Shown one piece after another: positions 5,479 through 31,649 of a stretch of 53,653 nucleotides of DNA. The stretch is taken from the IMG/VR virus record IMGVR_UViG_2806310702_000001, one strand, 5' to 3'. The stretch is from an uncultured virus (IMG/VR IMGVR_UViG_2806310702_000001). Its lineage: Duplodnaviria > Heunggongvirae > Uroviricota > Caudoviricetes. The position numbers and the translations under genes were made by a program. Below the pieces are notes generated by a model. The model did not search any database. It was given only the letters and a program-made list of their open reading frames with translations, and had not been told where the DNA came from. Positions within the stretch are counted from its first letter, which is position 1, and each line of letters opens with the position of its first letter.

Positions 5479-5610
5479 ATATTATATCATCCTTTCATTT
5501 TAGCTTATTTTGTTGTTATAAAACTTAACAATATAAAAATCCATTAGAAGTGAGAATGGAGCGTTAGTGAAATGTAAGAGAGAAACCCTTTGTTATTAAC
5601 TTAATATATT

Positions 5611-6498
5611 TTAATTAATTTTCAATTCCCTTAATTCTTCTATAATTGTATCTAAATCTTTTTGTACCATGTATCCGTCTTTCTGTAATCTTTTAATAAT
5701 CCATTGCACACCTGTAGGAGTAAACATAGCTACATTTTGTTTTACAGTATCATAACCTATTTGTGTATCTCTAACTCTATGCTCAAAATATTGTTGATTA
5801 TTTGTATAGGATGCATAAGCTTCATAATGTCTTGCTCCTGATTGTTTTCTACCTTTATAATCTATATATGTATCAGTCATTATTATTTTATTTTCTCTTA
5901 AGTATTTATATAGATTATTTCTTCCTAATCCTTTTATACCTAATATTTTAGAAACGTCATTTACACTGTACAATCCATCATCACTTAGAAATTCATCTAC
6001 AATTGTTGTTTTCTCCCCTGCAATAATTAATAGTTCATCCTTTTCTTTATTCTGAGCTTCTAATCTTTTACGTTCTTCCTTTTCCTCTTTGTATTTTGTT
6101 AATAGCGTAATTGCAAAGTCTGGATTGTTAAGTATATTGTCTATTGTATCTTCTGTAGCATACATTCCATGCTTTCTTATACTTGGCAATACATCATTAG
6201 TAACCCATCTTTTAAATTTCTTAGAACTAGGTATTTTAGATCCTAATATTAAACTATAAAGCCCACTTTCATTTACTAATGTCGTTTGAGTTTTGACCAC
6301 CTTGCCATTTTGGCAATGTGGTATTATCTCTTTAATTTTATCTTCAGAATCAACCTTTTTACTGACAGTAGCACTTGTGTCAGAATATCCTAAAATTTTT
6401 GCAATGTCCTTTCCTACAAACCATATTTCATTGTTCTTTACTATTGTTCTAACTTGTCCAAATTCTTCACTCTTAAATACTTGTAAATTATTATTCAT
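5611..6498 (-). CDS. BRO-N plus KilA-C (ANT) antirepressor-like protein
   Basis: F.SEEFGQVR...WFVGKDIA...NESGLYSLI...FKRWVT.DVLPSIRKHG; GRNNLYKYLRE. Confidence 0.9.
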   Translation of the reverse strand: MNNNLQVFKSEEFGQVRTIVKNNEIWFVGKDIAKILGYSDTSATVSKKVDSEDKIKEIIPHCQNGKVVKTQTTLVNESGLYSLILGSKIPSSKKFKRWVTNDVLPSIRKHGMYATEDTIDNILNNPDFAITLLTKYKEEKEERKRLEAQNKEKDELLIIAGEKTTIVDEFLSDDGLYSVNDVSKILGIKGLGRNNLYKYLRENKIIMTDTYIDYKGRKQSGARHYEAYASYTNNQQYFEHRVRDTQIGYDTVKQNVAMFTPTGVQWIIKRLQKDGYMVQKDLDTIIEELRELKIN

Positions 6499-6952
6499 AT
6501 TAGTCCTCCACAGTTTTTGGGTACTGTTAAACCCCTAATGTATGCTAATTAAAGCACCAATATACACACACGCACATTTCACTCCTATATATGGAGGACT
6601 AATTCTATACATGGAGTATAGTGTGTGTATGTATATATTGCTACCTTAATAAATTACCACTTATTTTTAAATATAAAAGAGTAGCCTTATTAACTACTCA
6701 AACTTTTAAATTTATATATTTTTAACTATATTTATTAACACATATTTTAATTAAATTGTATATAAAAGTCGCATTTTATGAATTAAAAAATAAGAAGATA
6801 TATTAAATATATCTAAAGTGATTACATTATATATATCTTCTTACAACTCTCAAACCCTCATTCTACCGTTATAAATTTAATCATATATTCATTTCTATAT
6901 CTCTAATGATAATTTATACGATTGAATGATTTAATTTCATTTAAAATTGATT

Positions 6953-7777
6953 TTATTTTGTGTATTGATTTTCTCTTAGTTTTTTAAATATAAAATCCAC
7001 TCCATTTGGCTTTACGTATGTAGTATAATTTAATTCATTTGTATACTTATTTACACTTTCTACAACTTGAAAATAATGTTTATATTTTTCATATGGTCTA
7101 TTTTTTCTTCCATTTTCACTCATTAATATCCCTATTTCTCTAAGAAATTTAAATAATTTATTTCTGCCCATGTCTTTAATATTATATATCTTTGCACATT
7201 CTTCCATTGATATTGAATCTGTAGAGGCTAAAAATCTATCATGTTGTTCCACTTTCGGTTCTTGTATTTTAATTATGTTATCTTTCTTTTCTAATTCAGC
7301 ATTAATTTTAGAGTTATACTCACCTAAAGCAATCATCCTTTCCTCAACTGTTTTACCTGTTACGGCTTTTACTATCAATTTATTTCTATCCAATATATCT
7401 TGTTGAAGCTGCTTATATTTTTTCTCAACATTAATCAGATATTTTCTATACTCTTTTGATTTAGCTTTAAGTTCTTTGTTAGCTCTAGGACTTGCACCTG
7501 CGACCATACATATTTCTTTTGCAATATCTAAAGTTAGAATATATTCTTGTGTCGGTCTGCCACCTTCTAGGTTATTTTCTTTAAAGGATAAAACCTCAAA
7601 ATCAGTATGTTCTATAGCGTCTACACTTTGCAAATTGTTTTTAATCCATGTCGCAAATTCCTTCCTAACACCTAATCCATTCCATAATTCTCTGCCATCT
7701 ACAACACTATTTCCGTATTCAGTTTTATAAATCTTAATCATTCCATCTTCTAATACTTTTAGTTCTTTTTTACTCAT
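6953..7777 (-). CDS. AntA/AntB plus KilA-C antirepressor
   Basis: VDGRELW..LGV...FATWIK...GGRPTQEYILTLDIAKEICM; GRNKLFKFLRE. Confidence 0.9.
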   Translation of the reverse strand: MSKKELKVLEDGMIKIYKTEYGNSVVDGRELWNGLGVRKEFATWIKNNLQSVDAIEHTDFEVLSFKENNLEGGRPTQEYILTLDIAKEICMVAGASPRANKELKAKSKEYRKYLINVEKKYKQLQQDILDRNKLIVKAVTGKTVEERMIALGEYNSKINAELEKKDNIIKIQEPKVEQHDRFLASTDSISMEECAKIYNIKDMGRNKLFKFLREIGILMSENGRKNRPYEKYKHYFQVVESVNKYTNELNYTTYVKPNGVDFIFKKLRENQYTK

Positions 7778-7871
7778 TATATATCCATCCTTTATTTATA
7801 ATATTTTAGAGCAACATTAAGCATTCTAAGTCATCTTCATCTCATTCCATTTATTTTTAGATATAAAAATT

Positions 7872-7900
7872 GACTAGGTACGTTACCGTTGTACCTAGTC
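7872..7900 (-). terminator. Intrinsic terminator inside the antA leader
   Basis: GACTAGGTAC/GTACCTAGTC perfect 10-bp stem followed by a T-rich tract on the minus strand. Confidence 0.75.
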
Positions 7901-8008
7901 TTTACTCTAAAAATATTATTGGTGTTGGATGAGGACACCTTGCAATGTTTAATATTCACTATAAAAATAGGACAAACTAATCAAAGCCTGTCCTTCATAT
8001 AATCTTAA

Positions 8009-8368
8009 TTATTTATTTATCACTATTGGACTATTTAATTCTTTGATCCCTGTATTTATTGTGTGAGATATATCTTTATTAATAGAATCTAATTCTACGT
8101 CTGTTAATGTAGGAAATATTTTTAGTAATCTATTTTTCATTTCTTCTTTTTTAATATCTCCTGATTTTTCTATATCCTTAAATTCATCTTCCAATCCAAA
8201 ATACATACCTCTAGCAATTCCTAATGCACGATTATACTGTACTGCCTTACCCTTTTCTTCTATATACGCTTTGAATTTAGCTATAAAATATGGAATTACT
8301 ATACTTAATATCGCAGTTAATATAGTTACTATACTTTTAAATACCAAAGCCATTATTTGTTCCTTCAT
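8009..8368 (-). CDS. Putative holin
   Basis: Single N-terminal TM helix and charged tail; adjacent to the endolysin. Confidence 0.65.
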   Translation of the reverse strand: MKEQIMALVFKSIVTILTAILSIVIPYFIAKFKAYIEEKGKAVQYNRALGIARGMYFGLEDEFKDIEKSGDIKKEEMKNRLLKIFPTLTDVELDSINKDISHTINTGIKELNSPIVINK

Positions 8369-8407
8369 TAAACTCACTCCTTATATTTACAAATTTAAAT
8401 TATATCT

Positions 8408-9157
8408 TTATCTAGGACAAGTAGCCCTTTTAGGTACCCATGCTTTGATTCCATCAATATCTACCAAGTAATATTCTAATTTTTCATCTTTAGCAGTAAT
8501 TAAATCATTACGATAGAAAAATTTTACTATATTCATGAATCCATCTCTTACAAATACGGCAGGAGAATCATAAGCCATTTTTAAAGACAATGGTTTAAAT
8601 GTTGGTTTAGGTGGTTCGCTATGAATTGATTTACCATAATAAGTACATACTCCTTTAACTATTGCATCAGCAATTCCTTTAATACCAACCCTCCTATAAA
8701 TACCTACATCTTCAGCATTATCACAGAAAAATGGTTCTATTATTACTGCCGTCATTTTAGTATGTCTAAGTTCATACAGTCCTCTTACGTCTTGTTTTGC
8801 ACCTCTATTATAAAACCCTAGTTTAGCCAATTCATTCACAATACATTCAGCTAACCTTTTTCCACTAGATGATGAATAAATTACTTCACACCCTTTAGCC
8901 GAACCATTAAAAGAATTTAAATGACAAGACATAAAAAAACTAGATCCATTTGAATTAGCCAAATTAACTCCATGTGCTAAATCTTGCCTTATAGTAGGTG
9001 TTCTTGTTGGAGTTACATCTTGTATATCAAATCCATTTTCCATAAGTCCTTTAATTACTAAAGGATAATATTTTCTATCTTCTGTTACTTCATTGACTAT
9101 ACCATTAGCACCAGTTACCCCATAATTATGTCCACCTCGTATTGAACCTTTTATCAT
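8408..9157 (-). CDS. Endolysin, N-acetylmuramoyl-L-alanine amidase (Amidase_3)
   Basis: GGH...E, SCHLNS, GLYELRHTKMTAVIIEPFFCDN. Confidence 0.92.
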   Translation of the reverse strand: MIKGSIRGGHNYGVTGANGIVNEVTEDRKYYPLVIKGLMENGFDIQDVTPTRTPTIRQDLAHGVNLANSNGSSFFMSCHLNSFNGSAKGCEVIYSSSSGKRLAECIVNELAKLGFYNRGAKQDVRGLYELRHTKMTAVIIEPFFCDNAEDVGIYRRVGIKGIADAIVKGVCTYYGKSIHSEPPKPTFKPLSLKMAYDSPAVFVRDGFMNIVKFFYRNDLITAKDEKLEYYLVDIDGIKAWVPKRATCPR

Positions 9158-9244
9158 AAGAGTTCACCTTCTTTCTTGTTAAAAATCTTATTTTAAATTT
9201 AACTTTTATAGTATTAAAGGAGAACCAATTGGCTCTCCTTTAAA

Positions 9245-9514
9245 TTAAATTTCTTTATTTGATATTTCCTTAGTCTCTTTTATATCTTCTTTAGTCTTAT
9301 CTACCTTCTTTGATTTATCTTTAGACTGAAATATGTTGTCCCAATTTGAATCACTTGGAATAAAAAATGTCTTTATTAATTCTTTATCTAAAATTTGTTT
9401 ATCAAAGCAAAGATCACCTTTAGTATTTATAGTTATTGTTTGATTAATTAAATATCTTATGTCTTGAGGTGGACTTGCAAAATGATTGTATATTAGTTTA
9501 ATAGGCTTATTCAA
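9245..9514 (-). CDS. Hypothetical protein
   Basis: TTG start with RBS; terminator hairpin at 9215-9242. Confidence 0.55.
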   Translation of the reverse strand: MNKPIKLIYNHFASPPQDIRYLINQTITINTKGDLCFDKQILDKELIKTFFIPSDSNWDNIFQSKDKSKKVDKTKEDIKETKEISNKEI

Positions 9515-9528
9515 CTATACCACTTCCC

Positions 9529-10299
9529 TTATTCTATTATTGTATATGTAGCCATATCGTCATTTTCATCTGCAAATAAATCAAAATCGGCGTTAATTTT
9601 AGCAACATTTGAAGCATCTAAATTAACAGTCATATTTGATTTTGGTTTGCAATTATGAATATGTAATTGTATGAATTCTTCAAGACCTTCTGTGTTTCTT
9701 AACATAGTATCAGCAAAAATTTCATAATTAACTGGATACTTTTTAGCATTTATAGTAAAACTTTTTACATTCTTACTTTTATTTTCTAAGTAATACACTC
9801 CTATTTTATCTCCATCAGATACATCTTCTGAGCTAAACTTTAAAGTTTTATCTGATATTGAGTATTTACCTTGTGAAGCTAGTGTAGTTGCGTCTATTTT
9901 TTTCTTATGTGTAAAACCATCTGCATTTAAAAGAAATACTTCTAAAGTTCCTTTTGCTGGCGTTCCTGTCATAGTCACTGAGTTATCTTTAACTGTAAGC
10001 ACTTCTCTTTTCATAACTTCTTTATCACCTTCAACAAACGCTCCTCCTAATAAAATAGGCAACCAATCAAGCGAAAATACTTCCATTTCTAGTTTGAAAT
10101 GTCCCTTTTTGTTGTGGTCAAACGCAATTTTATTAACTCCTTTTGCTTTTGCATATACTCTATCTGAACTAAATCCTAATTCAGATGTATTAGCATATTC
10201 ACTATATAATACAGTTTCTGCACCTTTCTTTGTTTTTTGTTTTAAAAATACGTTACACGCATCCTTAATTGCAAATAATTTATGATCTAATCCACTCAT
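9529..10299 (-). CDS. Putative major tail (tube) protein
   Basis: Position after neck genes; beta-rich pattern (VYAKAKG, QLHIHNCKPKSNMTVNL). Confidence 0.6.
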   Translation of the reverse strand: MSGLDHKLFAIKDACNVFLKQKTKKGAETVLYSEYANTSELGFSSDRVYAKAKGVNKIAFDHNKKGHFKLEMEVFSLDWLPILLGGAFVEGDKEVMKREVLTVKDNSVTMTGTPAKGTLEVFLLNADGFTHKKKIDATTLASQGKYSISDKTLKFSSEDVSDGDKIGVYYLENKSKNVKSFTINAKKYPVNYEIFADTMLRNTEGLEEFIQLHIHNCKPKSNMTVNLDASNVAKINADFDLFADENDDMATYTIIE

Positions 10300-10329
10300 G
10301 AAATTCACTCCTTGTTTTTTAATTTACTT

Positions 10330-11172
10330 TTATATTTGTTTTTTATTTAATTCTTTAATATTAGAAATCCAAATAGAATTTTTCATACTTTTCGGATCAA
10401 CGTCTACTGTACAATAAATTTGTTGAGTATTATTTATAGACTTAAAGCATATTACTTTATATGTATGAATTAATTGATAGTAAGTTAAATTTAAATACTC
10501 ATCATAATTAATTAATCGTTTATCAACTATAAGAGCGTTAATCATATCTATGATCCCAATATAGTTTTGTTGTTCTTTTCTCTGTCTACCTTTCATAAGT
10601 TTTTCATATACATCTTTTCTTCTAGCACTCATATTTTTAGGTTTTTCTTTTATTTTAGCAACCTCTTGACAAGTGATAAGACGTATATAAGCACACAACG
10701 TATCAAAATTATCTCTATTAATTATATATTGATCATCAATAATAAAGCCAATATCCTCTTTTAAATATTTTATGTTGGTTGTCTTATAGAATATAGTTAA
10801 GCCAGTAAGTAATAATTGATTGTATTGTCTAACAATGTCAATATTATCTTGTTTATTAGATAATGTTAAAAAAAATAAATCAAGTAGTTTTACTTTGTTA
10901 ACATCGATGTTAGATGTAGCATCTTCCTCGTTCCATAATTCTTTTAACAAAATTTCTTTAGTTAAACAAAATATACTTAAATAAGTAGCAAAGAATTTTT
11001 CACCACCACAATTAATAATATCCTGTATTGTTGGTTGGTGTATCACACCTAATAAATTTTCTTGCTCATTACCTGATATTAAAATATTTTGTTTAAGCAA
11101 TAATTCTAATTCATCAATTTTAATCAATGTATTTACATCAACGTCTTTATTATCTTTATTTAACTCAACCAT
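10330..11172 (-). CDS. Virion assembly protein, hypothetical
   Basis: Long ORF within the structural operon. Confidence 0.55.
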   Translation of the reverse strand: MVELNKDNKDVDVNTLIKIDELELLLKQNILISGNEQENLLGVIHQPTIQDIINCGGEKFFATYLSIFCLTKEILLKELWNEEDATSNIDVNKVKLLDLFFLTLSNKQDNIDIVRQYNQLLLTGLTIFYKTTNIKYLKEDIGFIIDDQYIINRDNFDTLCAYIRLITCQEVAKIKEKPKNMSARRKDVYEKLMKGRQRKEQQNYIGIIDMINALIVDKRLINYDEYLNLTYYQLIHTYKVICFKSINNTQQIYCTVDVDPKSMKNSIWISNIKELNKKQI

Positions 11173-11174
11173 AG

Positions 11175-11702
11175 TTATCTAAAATCCTTTATAAAATATC
11201 TTAAACTATATCCAACCATATCATTAGTTATAATAATATTCCAACTTAATTTATTTAAATCTCCTAATCCTAAACCATACGATCCCGTTAAAGTCTTTTG
11301 TATTTCATACTTAATTTCTAAATCTCTCCTACCTTTATTAATAAGAAGAATATCATTATCATTACTAACTAATATATCTATTTGTAAAGTAGCATCTTGA
11401 AATATTCCTCCTTGCTCTCTACCATCAATCCAATTTACATAAATACGACTACCTTTAACAGTTGTAGTATTTATATCTTTAGGATAAGGATATATATATT
11501 CATTAATAATAGGATTTTGTTTGGTAATTTCAATATCATTAGCTTTAAATGGTTGATTATTCGGAATGGTTAATAACTTTAATAAATTTTGATTCTCCAT
11601 CAATGCGTATACCACATCGAAAAGATATTTATTTAATATACAACTTTCTTTTAATTCTAATCCATGTTTAAATTCACTATCTTTATAAGTTGTAATTGGC
11701 AA
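11175..11702 (-). CDS. Putative tail completion protein
   Basis: Size and position in the neck cluster; TTG start with GGAG RBS. Confidence 0.45.
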   Translation of the reverse strand: MPITTYKDSEFKHGLELKESCILNKYLFDVVYALMENQNLLKLLTIPNNQPFKANDIEITKQNPIINEYIYPYPKDINTTTVKGSRIYVNWIDGREQGGIFQDATLQIDILVSNDNDILLINKGRRDLEIKYEIQKTLTGSYGLGLGDLNKLSWNIIITNDMVGYSLRYFIKDFR

Positions 11703-11719
11703 TTTAAATCAACTCCATT

Positions 11720-12334
11720 CTATTCATCAGCTAATAAAGGTTCTGTATGAAATTCTAACAATCCCATACCTGTTAAATCTTCACTATATAATAAAGATTC
11801 TCTAATTTGCATTTCTCTCTCAGATGTAACAGGTAGACTCTTATATATATAATCATCTTTTAAATTATCATATACGGTTAATAAAAATTGACCTTTAACA
11901 ATATGTACAGAGTCTTTTAATTTATAAATCACATCATAATATTGAAATTGGCTTTTAACCATTTCTAATGTAAGATTTAAAGGTTTATCCACCATCTTTT
12001 TAACTTGCTTATGTTGATCTCTCTCTACAATTTGATCTTCTGTGATCTCAACCTTTTCGGTTTTAGCAGTTATTAAATAAACAGTATTACTTGAATCAAC
12101 TGCAAATTTACCAATACTATCTTTAGAATCTATTCCAGCCATAGGTACTTCTTCTAATTGTACGCCATCATCATCAATTACATCCACAAAATGATTGACA
12201 ATACTTGAATTAGGTTCACAAATTGATGGTAGTGGTTTTAATTTTACCACTGCTACATTTGTATAGGTTACTGTATCTAAAGCTACAATGTCATCTCTAG
12301 TTAAGTGCCATTTTTTCTTTTTTTCATTTATCAT
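11720..12334 (-). CDS. Hypothetical structural-region protein
   Basis: ORF with AAGGAG RBS in the structural operon. Confidence 0.6.
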   Translation of the reverse strand: MINEKKKKWHLTRDDIVALDTVTYTNVAVVKLKPLPSICEPNSSIVNHFVDVIDDDGVQLEEVPMAGIDSKDSIGKFAVDSSNTVYLITAKTEKVEITEDQIVERDQHKQVKKMVDKPLNLTLEMVKSQFQYYDVIYKLKDSVHIVKGQFLLTVYDNLKDDYIYKSLPVTSEREMQIRESLLYSEDLTGMGLLEFHTEPLLADE

Positions 12335-12393
12335 TGTCTATATCTCCTTTCGTTTGCTTTTATTTTTAATGTAATTTTCATTGCTATCTCAAT

Positions 12394-13587
12394 CTATATC
12401 CAAGCCGATATAATCTCGATCTTTTTAATTTCTTCGTTACCTATTCTATTCTTACAATGTAATAAAACGATTCCTTCATCTTGATTATGATTAGCTTGTA
12501 TAGTACAAGTACAATTTTCTTTATCAATTTTTGTAATTTTAGCTAATTTAGTTTCCTTACCATTCTCATCGGTTAAGGTAAACTCACACTTATCATTATA
12601 TGGTTGTCCATTATCTACAAATGTAACTTTATATGTAGCTTTTCTCCCCCATGCAAGTGTTGATTTACCTTCAATTTGAGTTGTAAAGTTATTAGTTTCA
12701 TTTTCTAAAATTTGAACATCTACAGATTTTTGAATTCCTTCATATTCAATTGTAAGTTTACAAGTTCCATATTTTAATCCTATTATTTTATTATCTTCAA
12801 TTTTAACTATCCCTTCATTTGAAATAATATATTTCAATATAGGATTATCAACTTTTGTATCATTCTGGAAGCATTGAATATCAATGGTTGTACTTGTTCC
12901 AAGAGTTGATAAAATTGGGTTTTTATTTAGTATTTTAAAATCATAATGGTTCTGATATTTATAGTAATCAGCTATACCTAATTCAAGATTATCGGTATTA
13001 CTATTAAATTCATCTTGTTCGCACATTATTTTTAGTAACCCTTTATCATCTTCATTTATAAAAGTGACTTTCCAACAATGTCTGTTAATTATTAATCTCA
13101 TATCTTCATATACAGTTTTAGTAATTTCATTATTGGGTAATAAAATACTTTCCTTTGAATTACCCCATTGTATGAATTTATCTTCTTTAACTCCTGTAGT
13201 ATACAATTGTTCATTATTTACTAATGCAATATGAGTTTGTATATTACCATCTTTATCAATCCATTTTAATAAATGATTAAATTTTCTTAATTTAGAAGTG
13301 TTGTAAAATGGGTTATCTTTATCTATATCAGAAATAACAATATAATCATTATCCATATACTTCACCATATATCCTCTATTAATATCCACATCTTTAGATA
13401 AGATTAAATATCTTTCTTCTTTATGTTCATTAGTAGGATTGCTATGGTTTCTTACTATTGCATTTTGTTTATTTCCTTCAATTAATATACTTGTACCTTC
13501 TGATTTTAACTGTTGTTGGAATAATTTATAAGCACTCCATTTAACCTTGTCAACTGTTGGAGAACGATAATTACTATAATCTTTCAT
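12394..13587 (-). CDS. Putative head-closure protein with C-terminal Ig-like domains
   Basis: Position after the adaptor gene; Big_2-like SNEGIVKIE..KIIGLKYGTCKLTIEY. Confidence 0.55.
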   Translation of the reverse strand: MKDYSNYRSPTVDKVKWSAYKLFQQQLKSEGTSILIEGNKQNAIVRNHSNPTNEHKEERYLILSKDVDINRGYMVKYMDNDYIVISDIDKDNPFYNTSKLRKFNHLLKWIDKDGNIQTHIALVNNEQLYTTGVKEDKFIQWGNSKESILLPNNEITKTVYEDMRLIINRHCWKVTFINEDDKGLLKIMCEQDEFNSNTDNLELGIADYYKYQNHYDFKILNKNPILSTLGTSTTIDIQCFQNDTKVDNPILKYIISNEGIVKIEDNKIIGLKYGTCKLTIEYEGIQKSVDVQILENETNNFTTQIEGKSTLAWGRKATYKVTFVDNGQPYNDKCEFTLTDENGKETKLAKITKIDKENCTCTIQANHNQDEGIVLLHCKNRIGNEEIKKIEIISAWI

Positions 13588-13602
13588 ATATATCGTCCTC
13601 CC

Positions 13603-14019
13603 TTAGTTATAATCAAAGTCTTCCATATTATTTAATAGTTCATTGATTTTGTTTTGAGTTCTTGCTAAAGTTGATTCTCTTCCTTGTAATTGCTCCCTAT
13701 AGAATTTTTGACCAACTTCTTTTTGAAATGGTTGCCATAATTCTTCAAACTCAATTAATTCATTTTCTAAATATGAATACCTTAAGCAATAAGCTAACAG
13801 TAGTAATTGGTTGTTATCTAAAAGAATATTCACCCGTTCCTTTTCATCATCATAGTTTAAATTTGTATAAGATTCATCAATTACAGTATTATAATGTATA
13901 ATTGCATTATGTATTAATTGATATTTACCTTCATTTGATTTAGGTAGATTATCTGTATCTATACCACAATTATCAAGAAAACAAGTGAATATTTCATCAT
14001 AGGAAGTATATGAGGTCAC
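13603..14019 (-). CDS. Putative head-tail adaptor
   Basis: Helical 138-aa protein two genes after the capsid gene; GTG start with GAGGTG RBS. Confidence 0.5.
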   Translation of the reverse strand: MTSYTSYDEIFTCFLDNCGIDTDNLPKSNEGKYQLIHNAIIHYNTVIDESYTNLNYDDEKERVNILLDNNQLLLLAYCLRYSYLENELIEFEELWQPFQKEVGQKFYREQLQGRESTLARTQNKINELLNNMEDFDYN

Positions 14020-14038
14020 TTTAAATCACCTCACTTTA

Positions 14039-14566
14039 TTATTTTTCATACATTTCTTTTAAATTTTTATCAAAGAATAAATCAGAATTTTCGTATTCTA
14101 ACCCTGCCCACTCACAGATTACTTTTCTTTTAGCACTAGAATCTACTCCTTCATCAACAGCAATTGCTACAATATATTTTTTTAAATCTTCAATAATAGC
14201 TTGTTCTTTACCATCAGTTAATTCTTTTAATTTCTTCTTAAGAGATAAATGATTTCCTTCAGTTAGTAGATTAATGACCTCTTGTTTAGTCATAGCTATA
14301 CTTTCAGCTTGTTCTATTTCAGGAATGTTTTCCTTCGCCAATTTAACATCTTCATCTTCTGTTTCTTTTATAATTAAAGCTCCTGTTTGAAATACTGTAG
14401 TTTGATTTTGCAAATAATCAAATACTTCAAATGGTACAGGTCTTTCATTCAATATTGAACCTTTTGTACCTTGCCATGTATATGTAGTAGTAGTTCCATC
14501 ATGTGGGTAGTTTACTATAAACGGTGTTCCTTGTTTTCTTATTAATATAACTTTTTTATCTTCCAT
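14039..14566 (-). CDS. Hypothetical head-region protein
   Basis: ORF with RBS directly after the capsid gene. Confidence 0.6.
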   Translation of the reverse strand: MEDKKVILIRKQGTPFIVNYPHDGTTTTYTWQGTKGSILNERPVPFEVFDYLQNQTTVFQTGALIIKETEDEDVKLAKENIPEIEQAESIAMTKQEVINLLTEGNHLSLKKKLKELTDGKEQAIIEDLKKYIVAIAVDEGVDSSAKRKVICEWAGLEYENSDLFFDKNLKEMYEK

Positions 14567-14607
14567 TAATATCTTCCTTTCTATTTAAATTATTTTTTAT
14601 TAGTTGT

Positions 14608-14632
14608 AAAGAAGGGTTATTAACCCTTCTTT
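14608..14632. terminator. Terminator after the capsid gene
   Basis: AAAGAAGGGTTA-T-TAACCCTTCTTT inverted repeat. Confidence 0.7.
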
Positions 14633-14634
14633 GA

Positions 14635-15687: not shown

Positions 15688-15749
15688 TGTATAATCCTCC
15701 TTAGATTCACGTTTATATTGTGTATATTTTAATTTAATTTTATTTTATA

Positions 15750-16295: not shown

Positions 16296-16335
16296 ATTAT
16301 TGTTTCCTCCTTCAGCTTTAATTAATTTAATTTTA

Positions 16336-17907: not shown

Positions 17908-17949
17908 TTAATTTATCACCTCCTTTCAATAGTGCGTACTAAAGTATCT

Positions 17950-18330: not shown

Positions 18331-18536
18331 TCTCATCACCTCCTTTCAATAGAAACACAATTATCTTTCTAAATACCATTTTTTAATTTCATCTTTAGTT
18401 TTATCTTTTAAATTATTGAATAATTCATCTTTTATAACTAACTTTTTTCCATTATTAGATATTAGAATAGAATTATTATTTTTAACTATTATAATGTTGT
18501 TTTTCATTTACAACTTCCTTTCTAAACATTTTGCAC

Positions 18537-20114: not shown

Positions 20115-20179
20115 TTTTGAATAGTCACCTCCTTTTGTTTTGATTATTTATTATTTTTCTAATTAGTTTTTGTTGTTAT

Positions 20180-21967
20180 TTAAATGTAATATACTAATGG
20201 GTCATCGTCCTCTTCGTCTTCATCATATAATTCTTTTTCTAACAGTCTACCTAAATAATTAGCAAATGCTATGCTAGAGTATCTATCTTTTCTTTTCCCG
20301 CTTTTTTCTTTTACTTTTATATATCCTCCAACTATATCAAATTCCAAATTAACTAATTCGTTTAGTAATGCTGTTGTTTGTAAAAATGGAGTTAGTATTT
20401 TAGACTTTTCTTCTGGTGGCAATTTTTCATACTCTTTTTTTTCACTTAACATATCTTTTGCTTCTAATTCATTAATAAGTAACTCTATATTTCCTTGTTG
20501 TAAATCGGTTCTTAGCGCAGTTGCTAATTCATGATTTAACCTTTGTCCTGCTTTAATACTAAATACAACTGGTAATGGATTAGGGGATAAAGCTCTTTTT
20601 TTCATTTCTTCATCATTGTAAGAACACCAAGCGTCATATTCTATATCTCGTTCTTCATCATATAATACTTTAACACATTCATCGTATATAGCCATACCAT
20701 TACCATGACAGTCAATAGCAACATACGAAGCTTGAAAATCGTTAAACAATTGTTTTAGTCGTATAGCTTGATTTTGAGAATGTTGTCCTTCCATGGTTTC
20801 TATGTATGGTATTTTTCTAATATACCTATCTCCACTAGGAATTAATCTCATACAAGTAAACACAGTAGCGTCGTTTTCTGTCCCTCCCATTAAAGCACAG
20901 TCAACACCTATTATTCTTATTTCTCCACTTTTTAAACCTTCTTTTTTTTGTTTTTTCTTATTTGAACTGTAATCGAAATTATTAACAGGATAAAATGCTT
21001 TTTTTAGTATTCTATTTTTTTGTATGTCGTCTAATTTAAATAATGCATTTTCATTTTGACCATACATAACATTTTCATATTCCATTAAAAATAGTATTGA
21101 GTCAAAATCAGATTTCATCTTTTCTTTCTCTATTCTTTTTTTACTCAAAAGTCCATGATGTATAGCTAATAAATAATCCAAAGCCATAAAACAAGCGTCT
21201 TTGCCTTTTAGCATTAAATCTCGCGTAGATTGCATAGCTCCCCACATCCAATGACTTCCTTTATACCAAGCCGAAGATATATAAATCTCAACATTTTCTT
21301 CCGTTAAGTGTTTGTATTCTTCTTTCTTTAAATAAGGAGGTTGTCTAAATACGTTTAGCATTGGTAAAAGAACTGACTCTAGTATTTTCTTATCTATCAT
21401 TCTGAATTCTTCTAAAATAATACAGTTTCCTCTATATCCTCTAGCGTTTTGAGTTGATGGTACTGCCGTTATAGTACTACCATTTTGAAACACCACTGTT
21501 GCTTCGTTAGAACTAGATTTTATCTGTTTGATCTCTCTTGCTAAATTAGGATATTGCATTAACTCTTTTTCGATTTTTTCGGTTATAATTAATTTTGCTT
21601 GCCCCTTCGTGCCTGACGCTAAAATTATTTTTGAGTTTGGATACAGTACAGATCTTGCACAACAATAAATCGCAATGGTAAAAGATTTTGATATACCTCT
21701 TGAAGCGACCAACATAAATACAGTATTTATATGCATTAAGTATAATATTATTTTTTGAAATAGATGTAACTCTATTTGAAAATATGACTCTACAAATCTA
21801 TGCATATTTAATCTGTAAAAAGTAGTCCACAATTTAATTTTATATCTCATTTTTTCGTTTTTACTCATATTCTCTACAGTGTTATTTACCTTAGCATTTT
21901 TTTTAAATATATCTTTAGTTTGACTATATTTTTGATTATCTACTTTGTAATTTGTATAAGAAGCCAT
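20180..21967 (-). CDS. Terminase large subunit
   Basis: Walker A ASRGISKS, Walker B IILEEFR, YISSA, nuclease IIGVDCA and KDRYSS. Confidence 0.92.
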   Translation of the reverse strand: MASYTNYKVDNQKYSQTKDIFKKNAKVNNTVENMSKNEKMRYKIKLWTTFYRLNMHRFVESYFQIELHLFQKIILYLMHINTVFMLVASRGISKSFTIAIYCCARSVLYPNSKIILASGTKGQAKLIITEKIEKELMQYPNLAREIKQIKSSSNEATVVFQNGSTITAVPSTQNARGYRGNCIILEEFRMIDKKILESVLLPMLNVFRQPPYLKKEEYKHLTEENVEIYISSAWYKGSHWMWGAMQSTRDLMLKGKDACFMALDYLLAIHHGLLSKKRIEKEKMKSDFDSILFLMEYENVMYGQNENALFKLDDIQKNRILKKAFYPVNNFDYSSNKKKQKKEGLKSGEIRIIGVDCALMGGTENDATVFTCMRLIPSGDRYIRKIPYIETMEGQHSQNQAIRLKQLFNDFQASYVAIDCHGNGMAIYDECVKVLYDEERDIEYDAWCSYNDEEMKKRALSPNPLPVVFSIKAGQRLNHELATALRTDLQQGNIELLINELEAKDMLSEKKEYEKLPPEEKSKILTPFLQTTALLNELVNLEFDIVGGYIKVKEKSGKRKDRYSSIAFANYLGRLLEKELYDEDEEDDDPLVYYI

Positions 21968-22845
21968 TATTCACTTTTCTCCAAACCAAATATCTTTTTA
22001 AATGGCCTAACAATCCATTGAGAAAAATATTTACCTACACTATCGAAATCAGCAAACAATGGTTTCTTGTCGAAAATTTCACACGGCTCATCATTTTCAA
22101 TCATTTTAATCCATAGCCCATAAGTAGACAATCCTTTATCATCATTAGCACCTGTACTTTGTATAGGTTTTATATTACCATCATTATGTAATTTTGATGA
22201 CGTTTCCATAAGTTTATTAAAATTAGTTATGTTTCCCGTCATAAATTCTTTTTCTGCTTGTAAATGAACTCTTGCAATATTTTTATATAGATTCTTCTGA
22301 ACAGGAGTATCTGTAGCATAGGATTTGGTATATTCAGAGTAGAAATTATCCAAATATTTATAATCATCCGTAGTAAATCCTTTACCCCATCTTTGTTCCC
22401 ATTGACTGATATTTTCTACATTATTGTGTTTATTGTTGTTTATTGCTTGTATTTGAGTATTTTTAATAATTTCATTATCATATAAATCCGTATAATTAGT
22501 ATCTTTCCAAGTTAAATCTTTATATTGAGGTAAGGACGACATTTGTTTTATATACTCACCCCAAGTATCTTTATCTGAATTTAGACATTCTTCCCATTTT
22601 TCTTTGATAAAAGGTTTATTCAATACATGCAATATAAAAAATATAGACTCCATATCATCGTATTTAACAATATCTTTCATACACTTCTTACCTATTGCGA
22701 TTCTATTATTTATATATGGACTTATATTTTGATAAAAATTATTGGTATTATACATTCTTTCCTTACCACAACATAGACAAATTTTATGATCACTTTTATC
22801 TTTCTTTTTTAAGTTGGTTTTTGTTTGGGACTTTTTAGCTACCAT
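21967..22845 (-). CDS. Putative terminase small subunit
   Basis: Translationally coupled to the large subunit; N-terminal CLCC. Confidence 0.5.
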   Translation of the reverse strand: MVAKKSQTKTNLKKKDKSDHKICLCCGKERMYNTNNFYQNISPYINNRIAIGKKCMKDIVKYDDMESIFFILHVLNKPFIKEKWEECLNSDKDTWGEYIKQMSSLPQYKDLTWKDTNYTDLYDNEIIKNTQIQAINNNKHNNVENISQWEQRWGKGFTTDDYKYLDNFYSEYTKSYATDTPVQKNLYKNIARVHLQAEKEFMTGNITNFNKLMETSSKLHNDGNIKPIQSTGANDDKGLSTYGLWIKMIENDEPCEIFDKKPLFADFDSVGKYFSQWIVRPFKKIFGLEKSE

Positions 22846-23064
22846 TATTCACTCACTTCCTTTTACTCCTTTCTAAATTTTCACATAATAAAAAAGAAGC
22901 TATATTTAAATAGCTTCTTAATTCTTCAATTTCCCTATGGGATTTTACATCTTATAATTATCCTATGGATATTATATAAATATAATTACAATTAGACGTA
23001 CCTATTTAGATACGCCTTATCTAACTATATTTATATAATATTTTTTAATTCTATTTTAATTTAT

Positions 23065-23796
23065 TTATATGTAATATTTCTTTAATAATTTTCTTATATA
23101 ATCTAGTCCTTTTTGATAAACTACTGTTTTAACATTTATTTTAATTTCACCGTTAGGTTTCTCAAATTTATTCTCAATAGTTCTAAAGTATTTACCGTCT
23201 ACAAATCTTTGATAAGGTACATTGTTACTCATCAACACATCATGCTCTCTAAGAAATTTGAATAAATTGTTCCTGCCTATGCCCATATTTAAAACTTTTG
23301 CACATTCACCCATATCTATTGTATCTTCACTTTTAGTTACAGCATCATAGAATTCAGCTTTAGGTAGCATAATATAGTTTTCTTCTTTTAATTTTTCATT
23401 TTCTTCAGCCTTATCAGCCAATTCTCTTAAAGCTTCTGCATAAGTTTGTGGCAATTTATATGTAGTTATTTGTCTTAAACTTTCTTCCATCTTATTAAAA
23501 GCATCAACATAAGTTGCAGTGAATAATACACCTTTTTTACCTATCATTTTATTAGCTATCATTTCACAACCTTTTTTAGTTACTAAATAACATTTTCTTT
23601 CTTCGTTTTTTGAATCTTTATACGTAGTTTCAATAAAATATTCTACCAATCCAAAGTTGGCTTCGTTAAGATATTTGCAATAATTTCTTATATCTCTTAA
23701 TAATTTGCTATGTTCTTTACTTACCATCTTTGCAACTTCTCTACTATCTGTTAATAACTTTCCATTTTGATTTATTACTTTTAATTCATTTACCAT
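23065..23796 (-). CDS. Rha plus KilA-C antirepressor
   Basis: DSREVAKMV..EHSKLLRDI...TKKGCEMIANK; LPQTYAEALRELAD; GRNNLFKFLRE. Confidence 0.9.
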   Translation of the reverse strand: MVNELKVINQNGKLLTDSREVAKMVSKEHSKLLRDIRNYCKYLNEANFGLVEYFIETTYKDSKNEERKCYLVTKKGCEMIANKMIGKKGVLFTATYVDAFNKMEESLRQITTYKLPQTYAEALRELADKAEENEKLKEENYIMLPKAEFYDAVTKSEDTIDMGECAKVLNMGIGRNNLFKFLREHDVLMSNNVPYQRFVDGKYFRTIENKFEKPNGEIKINVKTVVYQKGLDYIRKLLKKYYI

Positions 23797-23890
23797 TTTA
23801 TCGACCTCTTTCTTTTATTTTTTTAGTAATATATAATCTCTTATATATTCCAATTGACATTCGACTTGATATAATTAGGTATACAAAAAT

Positions 23891-23914
23891 AGGACTAGAA
23901 TTTAATCTAGTCCC
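23891..23914 (-). terminator. Intrinsic terminator inside the rha leader
   Basis: GGACTAGA/TCTAGTCC stem followed by ATTTTT on the minus strand. Confidence 0.7.
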
Positions 23915-24198
23915 TTTAGAAAATATATTACCAAAATTATAAAATAGGGTGGTCGAATACCCATTGCAATATACAAATAAAGTAGGAATAATATTTTCAT
24001 TAATCCTACTTTTTATTTTTTAATTCATTTGTAGATAAAATTTAGTTTTTATTTATATACTCACTGATATTAGCAATCTACAATAGTTACCAACTAATGT
24101 AAATTGCTAACACTATTAATATATAAATAAAATTTAGGGGTATACGAAAACTATATATAAACTTAATTTAATAAGCTTATAATCAATATTTAAATTTT

Positions 24199-24786
24199 TT
24201 AATCTACTTTTACTTTAATATTAAATAATTCTCCAATTGCTTTTACAGTATCTTTGACACCTTGTTGATATATTTGATCTAATACTTCATCTTTTTCATC
24301 TTCACAACATTCATCACAACATTTACAACATTCACAATGTTCTTTATCAGAATTGTACACATAATTTTCTTCTAATGATTTAAGATTTTCTAAATCCTCA
24401 TCATCTTTATTATCAAAGCTCTTAATTATTATTACATTTTCGCTTTCATTGCACTTATCTACAATATCTTCGCCATATTCATGCAATATAGACTCTTGAA
24501 TAAGTACATTGTCAGCTACATATTCATCATACAAGTTTCCGTCTTTATTTGTTAAAAATTCGATAATAAAATCATTATCACCATATTTAAAAACGCTATA
24601 ATAAGGATACTCACAATCTAATTCTACGCTGAAATAATACTCGAAATCATCTTTACTATACTCCGAATACTTTAATATTTCCCACGCAGTTTTATAATCA
24701 CACAGGAACATTACTTCCTTATCAGTATTAAAATAATTTTCCATTATATAATCTAAATTATATTCTTTAACATTTAACTTTTTCAT
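24199..24786 (-). CDS. Acidic hypothetical protein with Cys-rich cluster
   Basis: D/E-rich; HCECCKCCDECC. Confidence 0.65.
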   Translation of the reverse strand: MKKLNVKEYNLDYIMENYFNTDKEVMFLCDYKTAWEILKYSEYSKDDFEYYFSVELDCEYPYYSVFKYGDNDFIIEFLTNKDGNLYDEYVADNVLIQESILHEYGEDIVDKCNESENVIIIKSFDNKDDEDLENLKSLEENYVYNSDKEHCECCKCCDECCEDEKDEVLDQIYQQGVKDTVKAIGELFNIKVKVD

Positions 24787-25003
24787 TTAATCAATTCCTT
24801 TCTATTAATCATTTTAATCTATTATCCACTTTATTTAATTCTAATTTCTAGCAAAAATAGCAACCACAATATATGTAGTTGCTTAATTTAAGTTGTTTTA
24901 TTTTTCACCTAACTTACGTCCTTTCTACGGTATTTGTTATATATGTATAGTCTAATAGTTAGACTTATAACCTTTTATTATATGTATATGATTTAATTTC
25001 ATT

Positions 25004-25207
25004 TTATTTACTTGATTTGAAAAACGATGCAATAATACTTAATACTACTGTTACTGCTAGAGCTATTGGAAAATTTATAACTTTAATTGCAAAATAGATA
25101 GCTATAAAGTTCCATAATAACTTTATTAGCCAAGCTGTAAGGCAATATCCACAAGATATAGCTATTATCACTCCAACTACAAAAAGCATTTTTTTCAATT
25201 TAATCAT
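25004..25207 (-). CDS. Small membrane protein
   Basis: Two hydrophobic helices; overlaps the upstream stop. Confidence 0.6.
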   Translation of the reverse strand: MIKLKKMLFVVGVIIAISCGYCLTAWLIKLLWNFIAIYFAIKVINFPIALAVTVVLSIIASFFKSSK

Positions 25208-26244
25208 CCTTTCATTACAATATTAATGTATAATCTTCTTTTTTTATCATTCTCTTTTAATTCTTCTAAGTAATATGTTTTTATATTATTATAGTTTACT
25301 TTTTCATCATTATTGTATCTTATGATAGTATAGCAATAATCTTGCTTAGTATAATTTAACTTACCACAATCAGCATATTTCATAGGGTTGCACATACAGC
25401 CATTTTCTACAGCAAATATACCTTGTCTACGTGATACTATCATCTGACTTTGCTTATGAGTATGTCCAAATACTGCAACATCAAATTTTTCTTGTTTATT
25501 TAAGAAATGTGCAACTACTGACTCACATAATCTACCATCAATCTGTGAGAATCCTTTTGGATGGCATACTATTAATTTTTCGTCTAAATTTACATACCAA
25601 TGAGGAATATAAGTTATTTCTTCAATTCCTTCATAAGTTACTTTTTTATCATCTTCATAGATTGTAAATCCATCTACTAACATACTTAAAATATTAGGAT
25701 TTAAAAACTTTTGTAGATCCTTCTTTTGCATATTACAAACTTCCTTATATAATCTTTCTTCATGATTTCCATTAAATAATACTATCTTTTGTCCATTATT
25801 TAATATTCTTCTTACTTTCTTCAAGAAATTATATGCATAAATTAATTCTTGTACCAATGACATTCTTTGTACTTCAGGGAAACTTGATATAGCTTCACAA
25901 TCCATTAAATCTCATGCTATAACTAGGGTATCAATCTCATGCGAATGTTTTTGTATTATTTCTAATACATCTTTTCTCTCATATGGTACATGGAGGTCAT
26001 TTATAATCATTACATTTTTATCATATTTCTTATTTAATTCTATTAAGGTATCTTGTCTACCTAAGTTATAATCAAAACTACGACATCTTCTAGTAGATTC
26101 ACCTAGATTCTTACCTTCTGTTTCATTCATTAACTTCCATATTTTCTTATTATTTAATCCATATGCAACTTTGTTTCTATATAATCTAGCTTCATACTGT
26201 CTGATAGTTTCATTATCTTGTTTTTTAATTTTATTATCTAACAT
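25204..26244 (-). pseudogene. Calcineurin-like metallophosphoesterase interrupted by an in-frame TGA
   Basis: DLH, IA*DLMD (TGA 25912-25914 at the G of the GD motif), GNHE, GHTH. Confidence 0.8.
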
Positions 26245-27071
26245 TAATAAACTAATTCCTTTCTATTTAATTTATTTTCATATTTTTTTATAATGTCTGA
26301 AATATCTACATCATTATCTCTACATAATGCTACTATTGTACTTACTGCATTGGAAAGTTCTTCATCATGCAACATTTTTAAAGTTCTTGGCTTAGTCTTT
26401 TTACCTGTTGAGTTCATAAAATTTGTGATTCTAGCATTTATATTTATGCTATGTTTGTACAATATTTCTTTCTTGAACTTAGTCCATGCTTCACCAAAGT
26501 TACCTAATTTACTTCCGTAAGCTCTAACTAATGCGTTAATTAAGCTTCTATCAGCCCATTTTAAGTTCTCACCACTTAACAAATCATTTTCTTTATCTAA
26601 TATTTCATTATCATCTTTTAATTGTATTATTTGTTTTTGTTGATTTTCTATATTCTCAAATAAACTTTTAACAATAGTTTTATGTGTATCATCTAACGCA
26701 CCAAAATATGTATTAACCATTAAGTCTGCATTGGCTACATATCCACCTGTTTTACGAATAGTCTTTAATATCTTCTTAACTTCTTTCTTAAACTTTTTAG
26801 CAATTGGTTTTCTGCTTTGCATTAAGACTTCATACATACCATCCTCAGTTAAAAAATACATGTTCCTTATCTGACCACTATAATATATCGGTGAGGTTTG
26901 TTTTTCATCTTCATCAATTTTATTTAGCATTTGCCCCACTTTTGAAGTATCATAATCAATCATTTCAGCTATATCTTTTGCTAAGAATAATGGATTTTCT
27001 ATTGTTCCATAAATTCTAAAATCCTTATTAAACACTTTTCTTTCATCAATTACTTTTAACTCATTCTTCAT
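26244..27071 (-). CDS. BRO-N domain antirepressor-like protein
   Basis: FRIYGTIENPLFLAKDIA...FLTEDGMYEVLMQSRKPIAK. Confidence 0.88.
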   Translation of the reverse strand: MKNELKVIDERKVFNKDFRIYGTIENPLFLAKDIAEMIDYDTSKVGQMLNKIDEDEKQTSPIYYSGQIRNMYFLTEDGMYEVLMQSRKPIAKKFKKEVKKILKTIRKTGGYVANADLMVNTYFGALDDTHKTIVKSLFENIENQQKQIIQLKDDNEILDKENDLLSGENLKWADRSLINALVRAYGSKLGNFGEAWTKFKKEILYKHSININARITNFMNSTGKKTKPRTLKMLHDEELSNAVSTIVALCRDNDVDISDIIKKYENKLNRKELVY

Positions 27072-27307
27072 ATTATCATTCCTCCTAATATTTTTGATTT
27101 AAAATAATAAAAGAGTTAGCATTTCGCCAACTCTAAATTTCTTAATGGTGGGTAATTATCCCACAAATTAAGAGGATATGATTTCTGCATGTTTCACAAC
27201 ATTCATATTATCATCAATTAAATATCCATTAGGAACTTACCCTAATATTAATTAAATATTTAATTGTAACTATCAATATTAAATTTTATATGTATATTTT
27301 AATTTAT

Positions 27308-28012
27308 TTATGCTATATTATTTAAGTTATCATTTATTAATTGTAATCCTTGTTCAGTTATTCCAATATTCTTAAATCCACCATTATCATAAATCTTAAA
27401 GTATTTATCACCTTTGTTATTAACCTCTTTAATAGTTTTATGTATATAACCATTATTTTTTGCCCATCTTGTAATCTGCCCTTTTTTAAGATTAAATGAT
27501 TTGGTAGCATCTGTAATACTTGCTATTCCGTTTTTATCTAATCTTTTCTTAGCTAATGCAACAAGCGGTTCATCTTCTTCAATCTTTTTAATTAATAAAA
27601 CTTTTTCTTCTTGTTCCTTTATCCACGCCTTAGCTCTTTCAATAGGGTCTTGTATTAAATAACTATCAGTTTGATTTTGTTCCATCTGATTAAACTTTTC
27701 AACGTATTTAGCCGTGAATAAAATTCCCTTTTCACCTGTAAACTTATTAGCTATAAATTCACAACCCATTTTAGTAAATAAGTAGCATTTTCTTTCTTTA
27801 TTTTGTGTATCTTTATAAGTAGATTCTATGAAATATTTAGCCGGTGCAATTCCGTTCTCACCTAAAATTGGAATTATACCAATCATTCCTGCACTTTTAG
27901 AACCTTCTAATTTTCTAAGAATTAATTTATGTTCTACCCCTAACATTTTTGCCACTTCTCTACTATCAATTGTTAATTCTTTGTTGCTGTTTAAAACTGC
28001 TAACTTATTCAT
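27308..28012 (-). CDS. Rha family regulator/antirepressor
   Basis: TIDSREVAKML...CYLFTKMGCEFIANKFTGEKGILFTAKYV; DPIERAKAWIKE. Confidence 0.88.
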   Translation of the reverse strand: MNKLAVLNSNKELTIDSREVAKMLGVEHKLILRKLEGSKSAGMIGIIPILGENGIAPAKYFIESTYKDTQNKERKCYLFTKMGCEFIANKFTGEKGILFTAKYVEKFNQMEQNQTDSYLIQDPIERAKAWIKEQEEKVLLIKKIEEDEPLVALAKKRLDKNGIASITDATKSFNLKKGQITRWAKNNGYIHKTIKEVNNKGDKYFKIYDNGGFKNIGITEQGLQLINDNLNNIA

Positions 28013-28320
28013 AATTTATCAACCGTCCTTTTATAATATTATTTTATGGCGTATTTCAATTTTTATAAAGCAGTTACAAATACACAAAGTTATCAGCAAA
28101 ATATTAAATTTAGGAAGGTTGATATTGACGTATACATAGGTAGCTTGTCCTACATATACCACATCTATATGGAGTAGTCTTTTGATAAAGGTGTAACTAT
28201 CTCAAAAACACCTATCTACTATTTAGTAGATAATATATTCAATTTTATAAATACTAAAAGCCTACCAAATTAGTTGATAAACTTTATATTATTTATAAAA
28301 CATTTTAATTTAATTTTATT

Positions 28321-28354: not shown

Positions 28355-28379
28355 AATAATTTTGTATCATGCATTTTTT

Positions 28380-31634: not shown

Positions 31635-31649
31635 AAAATTTAATCCTTT

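Follow-up and report, generated by a model that had tools for sequence, protein, structure and literature searches.

In the immI region of phages P1 and P7, the c4 antisense RNA lies upstream of icd-ant and silences it by pairing with the ribosome-binding site (RBS). In phage P22, the sar RNA pairs at the RBS of the antirepressor gene ant, and is made from the opposite strand across the start of ant. Sequestration in cis by an anti-Shine-Dalgarno (anti-SD) sequence is found in riboswitch expression platforms and in type I toxin mRNAs, such as hok and aapA1. Here, we describe the leaders of five antirepressor-type genes (g1 to g5) in a stretch of 53,653 nucleotides (nt) from an uncultured virus of the Caudoviricetes (IMG/VR record IMGVR_UViG_2806310702_000001), the whole of which is referred to as the window. 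An original prediction, made from the sequence alone, held that all five genes carry a leader with a gene-specific anti-RBS sequence. In g1, g4 and g5, an upstream segment is complementary to the gene's own Shine-Dalgarno (SD) and start region beyond chance.

The five genes are real, as originally predicted, and lie, like every gene of this region, on the minus strand; 5/5 score above the curated Pfam cut-offs (Bro-N, AntA, Phage_pRha, ANT/KilAC). Their putative antirepressor activity is a matter of annotation only. The genes are:

5611-6498, minus strand: g1, antirepressor-type gene with BRO-N and KilAC domains (Pfam Bro-N 7.8e-30, ANT 1.5e-10)
6953-7777, minus strand: g2, AntA and KilAC domains (Pfam)
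23065-23796, minus strand: g3, Rha and KilAC domains (Pfam)
26244-27071, minus strand: g4, BRO-N gene (Pfam Bro-N 2.9e-14)
27308-28012, minus strand: g5, Rha-type gene with a weak KilAC domain (Pfam Phage_pRha 9e-23)

Complementarity of the leaders to their own RBSs

For each gene, the best RNA duplex was sought between the RBS (-22..+3) and the gene's own upstream region (-35..-220). Duplexes were compared with 500 dinucleotide shuffles per leader, and with natural controls, namely 186-nt segments cut from every one of the window's 33 intergenic regions (9.8 kb in total). The g1 duplex reaches -22.3 kcal/mol, and is equalled in 0/500 shuffles and 0/135 natural controls. Those of g4 (-16.4 kcal/mol) and g5 (-16.6 kcal/mol) are each equalled in 5/500 shuffles, and in 0/140 and 0/135 natural controls, respectively. 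The g3 leader is borderline (-11.8 kcal/mol; 47/500 shuffles and 14/136 natural controls as good), and the g2 leader is at chance level (-11.0 kcal/mol; 86/500 and 38/140). The claim that all five leaders carry an anti-RBS therefore stands for g1, g4 and g5, where control leaders do not show equally good complementarity, but not for g2, with g3 borderline.

When all 59 minus-strand genes are ranked by their duplexes, g1 comes 1st, g5 2nd (tied), g4 4th, g3 16th and g2 20th. By chance, three of the five would fall in the top four of 59 with a probability of 0.0012. Relative to the start codon, the complement lies at -106 (g1), -112 (g4) and -113 (g5), a near-equal distance although these leaders are dissimilar in sequence. 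In g2 and g3 it lies at about -160. The positions agree with the range of about 90-165 nt upstream that had been proposed.

Several trivial sources of complementarity were considered and rejected. The other top scorers (genes starting at 39005, 2281 and 51783) were set aside because their complement is the RBS of a divergent plus-strand gene, encoding Cro/C1-type helix-turn-helix (HTH) proteins at 39138 and 2476 and an Mrr-type protein at 51963. No divergent-gene RBS faces g1, g4 or g5, where there are only open reading frames (ORFs) of 21-43 amino acids (aa) without proper SD spacing, and at g5 also a 103-aa ORF that is antisense to g5 itself. Leader peptides were likewise rejected: in g1, g4 and g5, small minus-strand ORFs do run across the anti-RBS, but none has a proper SD, and in sister phages they are disrupted by indels of one base or by changes of the start codon. 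Inverted repeats resembling miniature inverted-repeat transposable elements were ruled out for these leaders because there is no sequence in common among the three, and each type occurs once per genome.

Leader anatomy

The g1 leader consists, in order, of the terminator of the upstream unit (6669-6699), a long hairpin with the anti-RBS in its loop, two small hairpins, and the RBS. Its main elements are:

6559-6639, minus strand: g1 leader hairpin, 81 nt, with an outer stem of ~16 bp and an inner stem; anti-RBS in the apical loop
6589-6604, minus strand: g1 anti-RBS, AATTAGTCCTCCATAT; pairs with 6498-6513
6498-6513, minus strand: g1 RBS segment, CTGTGGAGGACTAATA; ends in the A of ATG

In the g4 leader, the anti-RBS is followed by an RBS look-alike and a terminator-like hairpin:

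27166-27183, minus strand: g4 anti-RBS, AATCATATCCTCTTAATT; pairs with 27074-27090
27148-27164, minus strand: small hairpin between the anti-RBS and the RBS look-alike
27138-27146, minus strand: RBS look-alike, ATTAAGAAA; can pair with the anti-RBS instead of the RBS, giving an RBS-open state
27101-27134, minus strand: terminator-like hairpin and U tract, ~20 nt before the RBS; the scan found 1 against 0.2 expected
27074-27090, minus strand: g4 RBS segment, TATTAGGAGGAATGATA; pairing partner of the anti-RBS

The g4 helix includes a U.G pair that is possible only in minus-sense RNA. Because this pair is needed, the helix would be an imperfect repeat if viewed as double-stranded DNA.

The g5 leader comprises several hairpins, an 11-bp hairpin, the anti-RBS, an 8-bp hairpin, and the RBS:

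28130-28159, minus strand: 11-bp hairpin directly 5' of the anti-RBS
28111-28125, minus strand: g5 anti-RBS, ATATCAACCTTCCTA; pairs with 28016-28030
28016-28030, minus strand: g5 RBS segment, AAGGACGGTTGATAA; pairing partner of the anti-RBS

Just upstream of the g5 leader lies a drum RNA (RF02958, 51.5 bits; 28366-28473, minus strand), followed by a terminator at 28318-28354.

The leaders of g2 and g3 contain the following elements:

7961-7994, minus strand: g2 terminator T1
7921-7939, minus strand: g2 hairpin GGTGT-CCTCATCCA-ACACC; proposed anti-RBS, not above chance
7863-7900, minus strand: g2 terminator-like hairpin T2, flanking the small hairpin together with T1
23947-23962, minus strand: g3 small hairpin GGGT-ATTCGACC-ACCC; borderline anti-RBS, TCGACC pairing with GGTCGA at 23798-23809
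23884-23914, minus strand: g3 terminator-like hairpin T2, between the small hairpin and the RBS; 1 found against 0.0 expected

These two leaders have a common design: T1, TTGCAA, a 4-5-bp hairpin that holds the proposed anti-RBS in its loop, a TATAAT-like hexamer, T2, and ~100 nt to the RBS. As an alternative pairing, the g3 anti-RBS can also pair with a look-alike, GTCGAAT, at 23856-23867. In both leaders (7921-7994 and 23947-24013, minus strand) the TATAAT-like hexamer follows TTGCAA by 20-22 nt. By its sequence, the shared design could represent a very small transcription unit, two terminators in tandem, or a site for a regulator.

Predicted folding and energetics

When leader and RBS are folded as one RNA, the long-range helix is part of the minimum-energy fold of g3, g4 and g5, with a pairing probability (P) of about 1. 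A uniform fold of -200..+20 was also applied to the 59 genes, recording the distal pairing of the SD. Here, g4 (0.94) and g5 (0.90) come 2nd and 3rd of 59, with g2 8th, g3 11th (0.57) and g1 30th. The g2 pairing is inconsistent between its leader fold and the uniform fold. The g1 anti-RBS lies in an apical loop, and its pairing with the RBS would thus be a pseudoknot, which is beyond the scoring of the fold program.

Freeing the RBS from its predicted structure costs 12.0 kcal/mol in g5 (rank 5 of 59) and 8.2 kcal/mol in g3 (rank 9), and 3.3 and 0.6 kcal/mol, respectively, when only the local 40 nt are folded. The cost for g2 is 6.6 kcal/mol (rank 17 of 59). Overall, the RBS-freeing cost is less striking than the duplex tests.

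When opening costs are set against the duplex, in an RNAup-like balance, the net interaction is -13.2 kcal/mol for g1, -12.3 for g5, -7.8 for g4 and -5.8 for g3. That of g2 is unfavourable, at +5.3 kcal/mol. In folds of the leader alone, the anti-RBS core of g1 is mostly unpaired (mean P 0.76), as is the g5 anti-RBS, and that of g4 is mostly paired locally (mean unpaired 0.16).

Gene specificity of the anti-RBS segments

Each anti-RBS segment was also paired with the 59 RBSs of the window. The own gene ranks first for the segments of g1 and g4, with gaps of 7.8 and 2.1 kcal/mol, and second for that of g5, after a G-rich RBS. The anti-RBSs of g1, g4 and g5 are therefore private and differ between genes, as had been claimed, but the g3 and g2 segments rank their own genes only 7th and 5th. 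With the g5-type segment, the own gene comes out ahead of all others among the 217 ORFs of plasmid p1BKT015925 (203 kb). The short g4-type segment leaves its own gene outside the top 8 in this plasmid, yet the whole leader pairs at -16.5.

The original prediction further described the leaders as an orthogonal set. The ranks of g1, g4 and g5 agree with this, but a duplex of -14.8 kcal/mol is also formed between the g1 leader and the g4 RBS, and orthogonality between leaders is only partial.

Conservation and mosaicism in relatives

The leaders recur in close kin only. When protein relatives of g4 and g5 were drawn from IMG/VR, only the close ones had a leader of matching type, and a search for diverged g4- and g1-type copies in c-st, 3859/11 p1, p1BKT015925, G001 and G002 returned only orthologous copies and otherwise AT-rich noise.

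Within this group, the leaders precede different genes. In plasmid p1 of strain 3859/11, as in three IMG/VR contigs, the g4 position is occupied by another BRO gene, headed by the g1-type leader and the initial 50 nt of g1. The RBS of the 3859/11 p1 copy is altered and still pairs, with a one-base bulge (-19.4; 0/200 shuffles as good), and a C>T change in the stem of its hairpin is tolerated as a G.U pair. Neither g1 nor its leader is present in D-1873 or c-st. The g4-type leader is 96.6-99% identical ahead of three different N-termini, and in BKT015925 its terminator-like hairpin has two changes that preserve pairing as wobbles. The g5 leader of BKT015925 has an identity of 95.5%, compared with 67% for the first third of the gene and 94.7% for the remainder. 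The sole internal mismatch of the g5 helix is a variable position (C or U opposite U), and three one-sided changes in the 11-bp hairpin of sister phages are all retained as G.U or U.G pairs. The breakpoints of this mosaicism map precisely to the RBS or start codon. The anti-RBS and RBS of the g4-, g1- and g5-type leaders stay together as the cargo changes.

The g3-type leader is kept in four genomes, with shuffles as good as its sister copies in 1/200, 9/200 and 56/200 cases. In c-st it has been replaced behind an insertion sequence (IS) element, with the RBS kept. The T1-T2 block of g2 is 93.8% identical in c-st, where the upstream lysis genes are 54-63% identical and g2 itself is a 65-aa remnant with an altered RBS.

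Of 84 pairs counted in four genomes, eight show one-sided variants that stay paired via G.U, and two have unpaired cells. The retention of pairing at 8/10 variable stem positions fits leaders that behave as structured minus-sense RNA. For the two anti-RBS helices on alignment A5, 26/27 pairs are invariant; the remaining one, among the outer 5 bp of the g4 helix, is broken in a single genome. With relatives too closely related and helices nearly invariant, this comparison neither proves nor disproves the pairing.

A distant BRO gene on one IMG/VR contig (L014) has CCTATCGC at about -211, which complements its own RBS, GCGATAGG. The duplex amounts to -17.6 kcal/mol, with 0/200 shuffles as good.

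Phage identity and genome context

The window has ~25% G+C, and nearly all its genes are on the minus strand. It is 93-95% identical to Clostridium phage D-1873, and is also related to phage c-st. The annotation of c-st names homologues of YonD, YonE, YonF, YonG and YonO, and thereby points to the large SPbeta-like plasmid prophages of Clostridium botulinum group III. By these sequence relationships, the window is a c-st/D-1873-like, SPbeta-type plasmid prophage of this group. The family carries the type C/D neurotoxin genes and shows unstable lysogeny. The window also encodes TubZ, ParB-like, UvrD-type, IscB and Cro/C1-type proteins, along with a candidate polymerase:

33095-35803, minus strand: gene for a 902-aa protein with no Pfam match and a DVDGD motif; its C-terminus resembles the c-st 'YonO homolog'

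On these features, the 902-aa protein is probably the YonO-type RNA polymerase of the phage. Its N-terminus contains a (KD)n run, encoded by a 12-nt tandem repeat at 35590-35661. In SPbeta, the structural and lysis genes are described as being transcribed by YonO as one operon from a single start (PMC5467207). In the gene order of the window, g3, g4 and g5 lie upstream of the terminase and structural genes, and g1 and g2 follow the lysis genes, all in the same direction.

A proposed cis-acting lock and its alternatives

We favour a cis-acting RBS lock, located in conserved leader modules that travel with different cargo genes. From the sequence evidence, this reading could well be right and could equally well be wrong. 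According to it, g1, g4 and g5, and perhaps g3, would be stand-alone antirepressor-type cassettes with a long structured 5' leader. A segment of this leader, ~82-95 nt upstream of the SD, would pair with the gene's own RBS when both are on one RNA. In g4, g5 and g3, the long-range helix would close a domain of one to three hairpins, while g1 would form a loop-to-RBS pseudoknot. The ribosome would be kept off, such that the gene would be transcribed and not translated. Since the cassettes are co-directional with the YonO-type late region, the lock might keep DNA-binding regulators silent on long read-through transcripts. It could be opened by competing local pairings, which may involve ATTAAGA in g4 and GGAGU in g1. 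We infer the shared transcript of leader and RBS, the translational block, and its relief.

A number of observations weigh against a lock of this kind. The RBS-freeing cost of g4 is an unremarkable 6.2 kcal/mol, below rank 17 of 59, as its anti-RBS can re-pair with ATTAAGA at 27138-27146, and that of g1 is 3.6 kcal/mol (rank 49 of 59), with the pseudoknot outside the model. In addition, a 14-bp helix within a hairpin loop cannot fully form unless the stem melts. The terminator-like hairpins that separate the segment from the RBS in g4, g3 and g2 imply that the two may be on different RNAs. A weak promoter-like site lies between the anti-RBS and RBS of g5 (28069-28041), and promoter-like hits in the leaders are no commoner than in shuffles. 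Compensatory (two-sided) changes occur at 0/84 pairs in four genomes. Other antirepressor-type leaders of sister phages do not share the feature: 0/10 other BRO/Rha/KilAC leaders in c-st, 3859/11 p1, D-1873 and G002 have as few as 10/200 shuffles that do as well, and only 1/9 more distant IMG/VR leaders of antirepressor type does (that of L014). The feature consequently belongs to particular leader modules, and is not a general trait of the gene family.

A first alternative is C4-like action in both cis and trans, which we consider unlikely. The leader segment would be a stable small RNA that silences its cognate cassette on resident and incoming phages, and it would be released by termination at the leader terminator (g4, g3 and g2) or by cleavage of the long hairpin (g1). 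The layout is the same as that of the known c4 of P1/P7. A very stable hairpin carries the g1 anti-RBS in its apical loop, and the g5 anti-RBS is largely unpaired when the leader is folded by itself. Moreover, a terminator-like hairpin stands right after the element in g4, g3 and g2, and specificity is as such an RNA would need, with the own gene best or second-best of 59 RBSs for g1, g4 and g5, and best of 217 ORFs for the g5-type segment. The T1-hairpin-T2 block of g2 persists in c-st (93.8%) beside a decayed gene with an altered RBS, which hints at a role independent of the downstream RBS. However, C4-type Rfam models gave no match at gathering score in the whole window, and none even at E<=10 over 5400-8500 and 22900-28700. 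No other small-RNA model matched at E<=10 either, and a search of the five leaders for other Rfam regulatory families gave none, with only weak microRNA-like matches to the long g1 hairpin. There is no two-loop/two-box design and no icd-like ORF, no terminator between anti-RBS and RBS in g1 and g5, and no promoter that can be named from the scans. In the free leader, local pairing takes up most of the g4 anti-RBS, the net interaction of g2 is unfavourable, and cross-pairing between the g1 leader and the g4 RBS is not negligible.

A second alternative is that the complementarity has no translational role. The RBS match would be a by-product in leaders conserved for some other reason, as (i) terminator or insulator modules; (ii) mosaic recombination junctions; (iii) DNA operators; or (iv) structured RNA of unknown function. 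This, too, we would not expect to be correct, though it has some points in its favour. In g2 and g3 the complementarity is at chance level or close to it, there is no covariation, and the start codon or RBS is exactly where the mosaic breakpoints lie. With 95-97% identity, the leaders are about as conserved as the unswapped 3' part of g5 (94.7%), so conservation alone does not demonstrate selection on the helix. The perfect palindromes in the leaders, for example at 28214-28231, could be protein sites. Against this, for each of three independent, non-homologous leaders, nothing else in the 9.8 kb of intergenic sequence complements the RBS of its gene as well, and the three complements lie at the same distance. 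The g4 helix depends on a U.G pair, and the altered RBS of the g1-type copy still pairs.

Distinctly less probable is the strongest form of action in trans, in which the leaders of g1, g4 and g5, and perhaps the hairpin-terminator units of g2 and g3, would be separate small RNAs, each silencing only its own cassette both in cis and on incoming phages. If this were true, several RNA immunity channels, mutually orthogonal and with no sequence relationship to P1 c4, would reside in one Firmicute plasmid-prophage, and the swapping of leader-plus-RBS units between cargo genes would be a route to new specificities. The multi-channel secondary immunity of the original prediction is, likewise, a hypothesis rather than a finding. 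Lastly, a promoter between anti-RBS and RBS was ruled out as a general explanation because there is only a weak candidate in g5 and none in g4, where no sigma-70-type match occurs between the terminator-like hairpin and the RBS.

Under the cis-acting lock, a giant SPbeta-type plasmid prophage would silence several DNA-binding regulators at the level of translation. One leader can occur with different cargo, and one genomic position can hold different leaders, which suggests that leader-plus-RBS units are interchangeable as parts for regulation.

Other elements in the window

Several further elements were recorded in the window. A tRNA-like gene at 29019-29109 (minus strand; Rfam tRNA 48.5 bits) adjoins tRNA-Trp (28924-28998), and has a 21-nt insert in its anticodon loop; ARAGORN made no call. 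The enlarged loop reads ACACCUCCCCCUUAG, a generic anti-SD string, and has its best pairings with G-rich RBSs in the window, at -22.8 for the gene that starts at 45180. In displaying an anti-SD, this tRNA-shaped RNA is reminiscent of c4, which is processed by RNase P. A run of nine Gs that could be slippage-prone occurs in the RBS of the small gene at 45001-45180, which reads GGAGGGGGGGGG (45181-45200, minus strand).

Between 28620 and 28890 (minus strand) lie ~270 nt of non-coding sequence with several G+C-rich stems, which are conserved in 3859/11 p1 (L005 2900-3160) and have no Rfam match at E<=1. A HEARO/omega RNA (31677-31894, minus strand; 141.8 bits) overlaps the 5' end of the following gene:

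30282-31694, minus strand: IscB-type gene with RRXRR and HNH domains

A module comprising a 100-aa gene and its upstream region is duplicated at 2097-2339 and 38821-39063, with the copies 97% identical and 36.7 kb apart. Each copy faces a divergent Cro/C1-type HTH gene (2476-2670 and 39138-39350).

Comparison with known systems

The C4 family (RF01695) is listed for Proteobacteria and their phages (PMC2864571). A literature search at the level of listings and abstracts, on antisense or anti-SD control of antirepressors in Clostridium or converting phages, gave nothing on the leaders described here.

Compared with the P22 system, the leaders share the pairing of an RNA at the RBS region of an antirepressor gene. 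Unlike sar, the complement is on the same strand, 82-95 nt upstream, and the scans gave no convincing plus-strand promoter. With riboswitch platforms and type I toxin mRNAs they share an upstream anti-SD that would occlude the RBS in the same RNA, and competing local pairings that would lead to on and off folds, a design for genes that are kept silent. They differ in that Rfam detects no ligand-binding domain or known family, in the class of gene, and in a pairing that spans a structured insert of 80-95 nt.

The closest parallel is c4 of P1/P7. In both cases, a structured RNA lies upstream in the same leader and is complementary to an RBS downstream, the setting is an antirepressor module of a plasmid prophage, and specificity is provided by base pairing. 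Yet g1, g4 and g5 each have one continuous complement, whereas c4 has two loops (a' and b') that pair with two boxes; two-segment pairing occurs in g3 only, where it is borderline. The target here is the RBS of the BRO or Rha gene itself, rather than that of an upstream icd-like ORF. No such ORF is present in the leaders, whose small ORFs are neither conserved nor preceded by a proper SD. A further difference is the host, a low-GC Firmicute, and there is no sequence or structure match to RF01695. By this analogy, the leaders resemble the c4/immI layout in outline only. If the lock is real, they would be a low-GC Gram-positive example of a task like that of P1 c4, carried out by an unrelated RNA.

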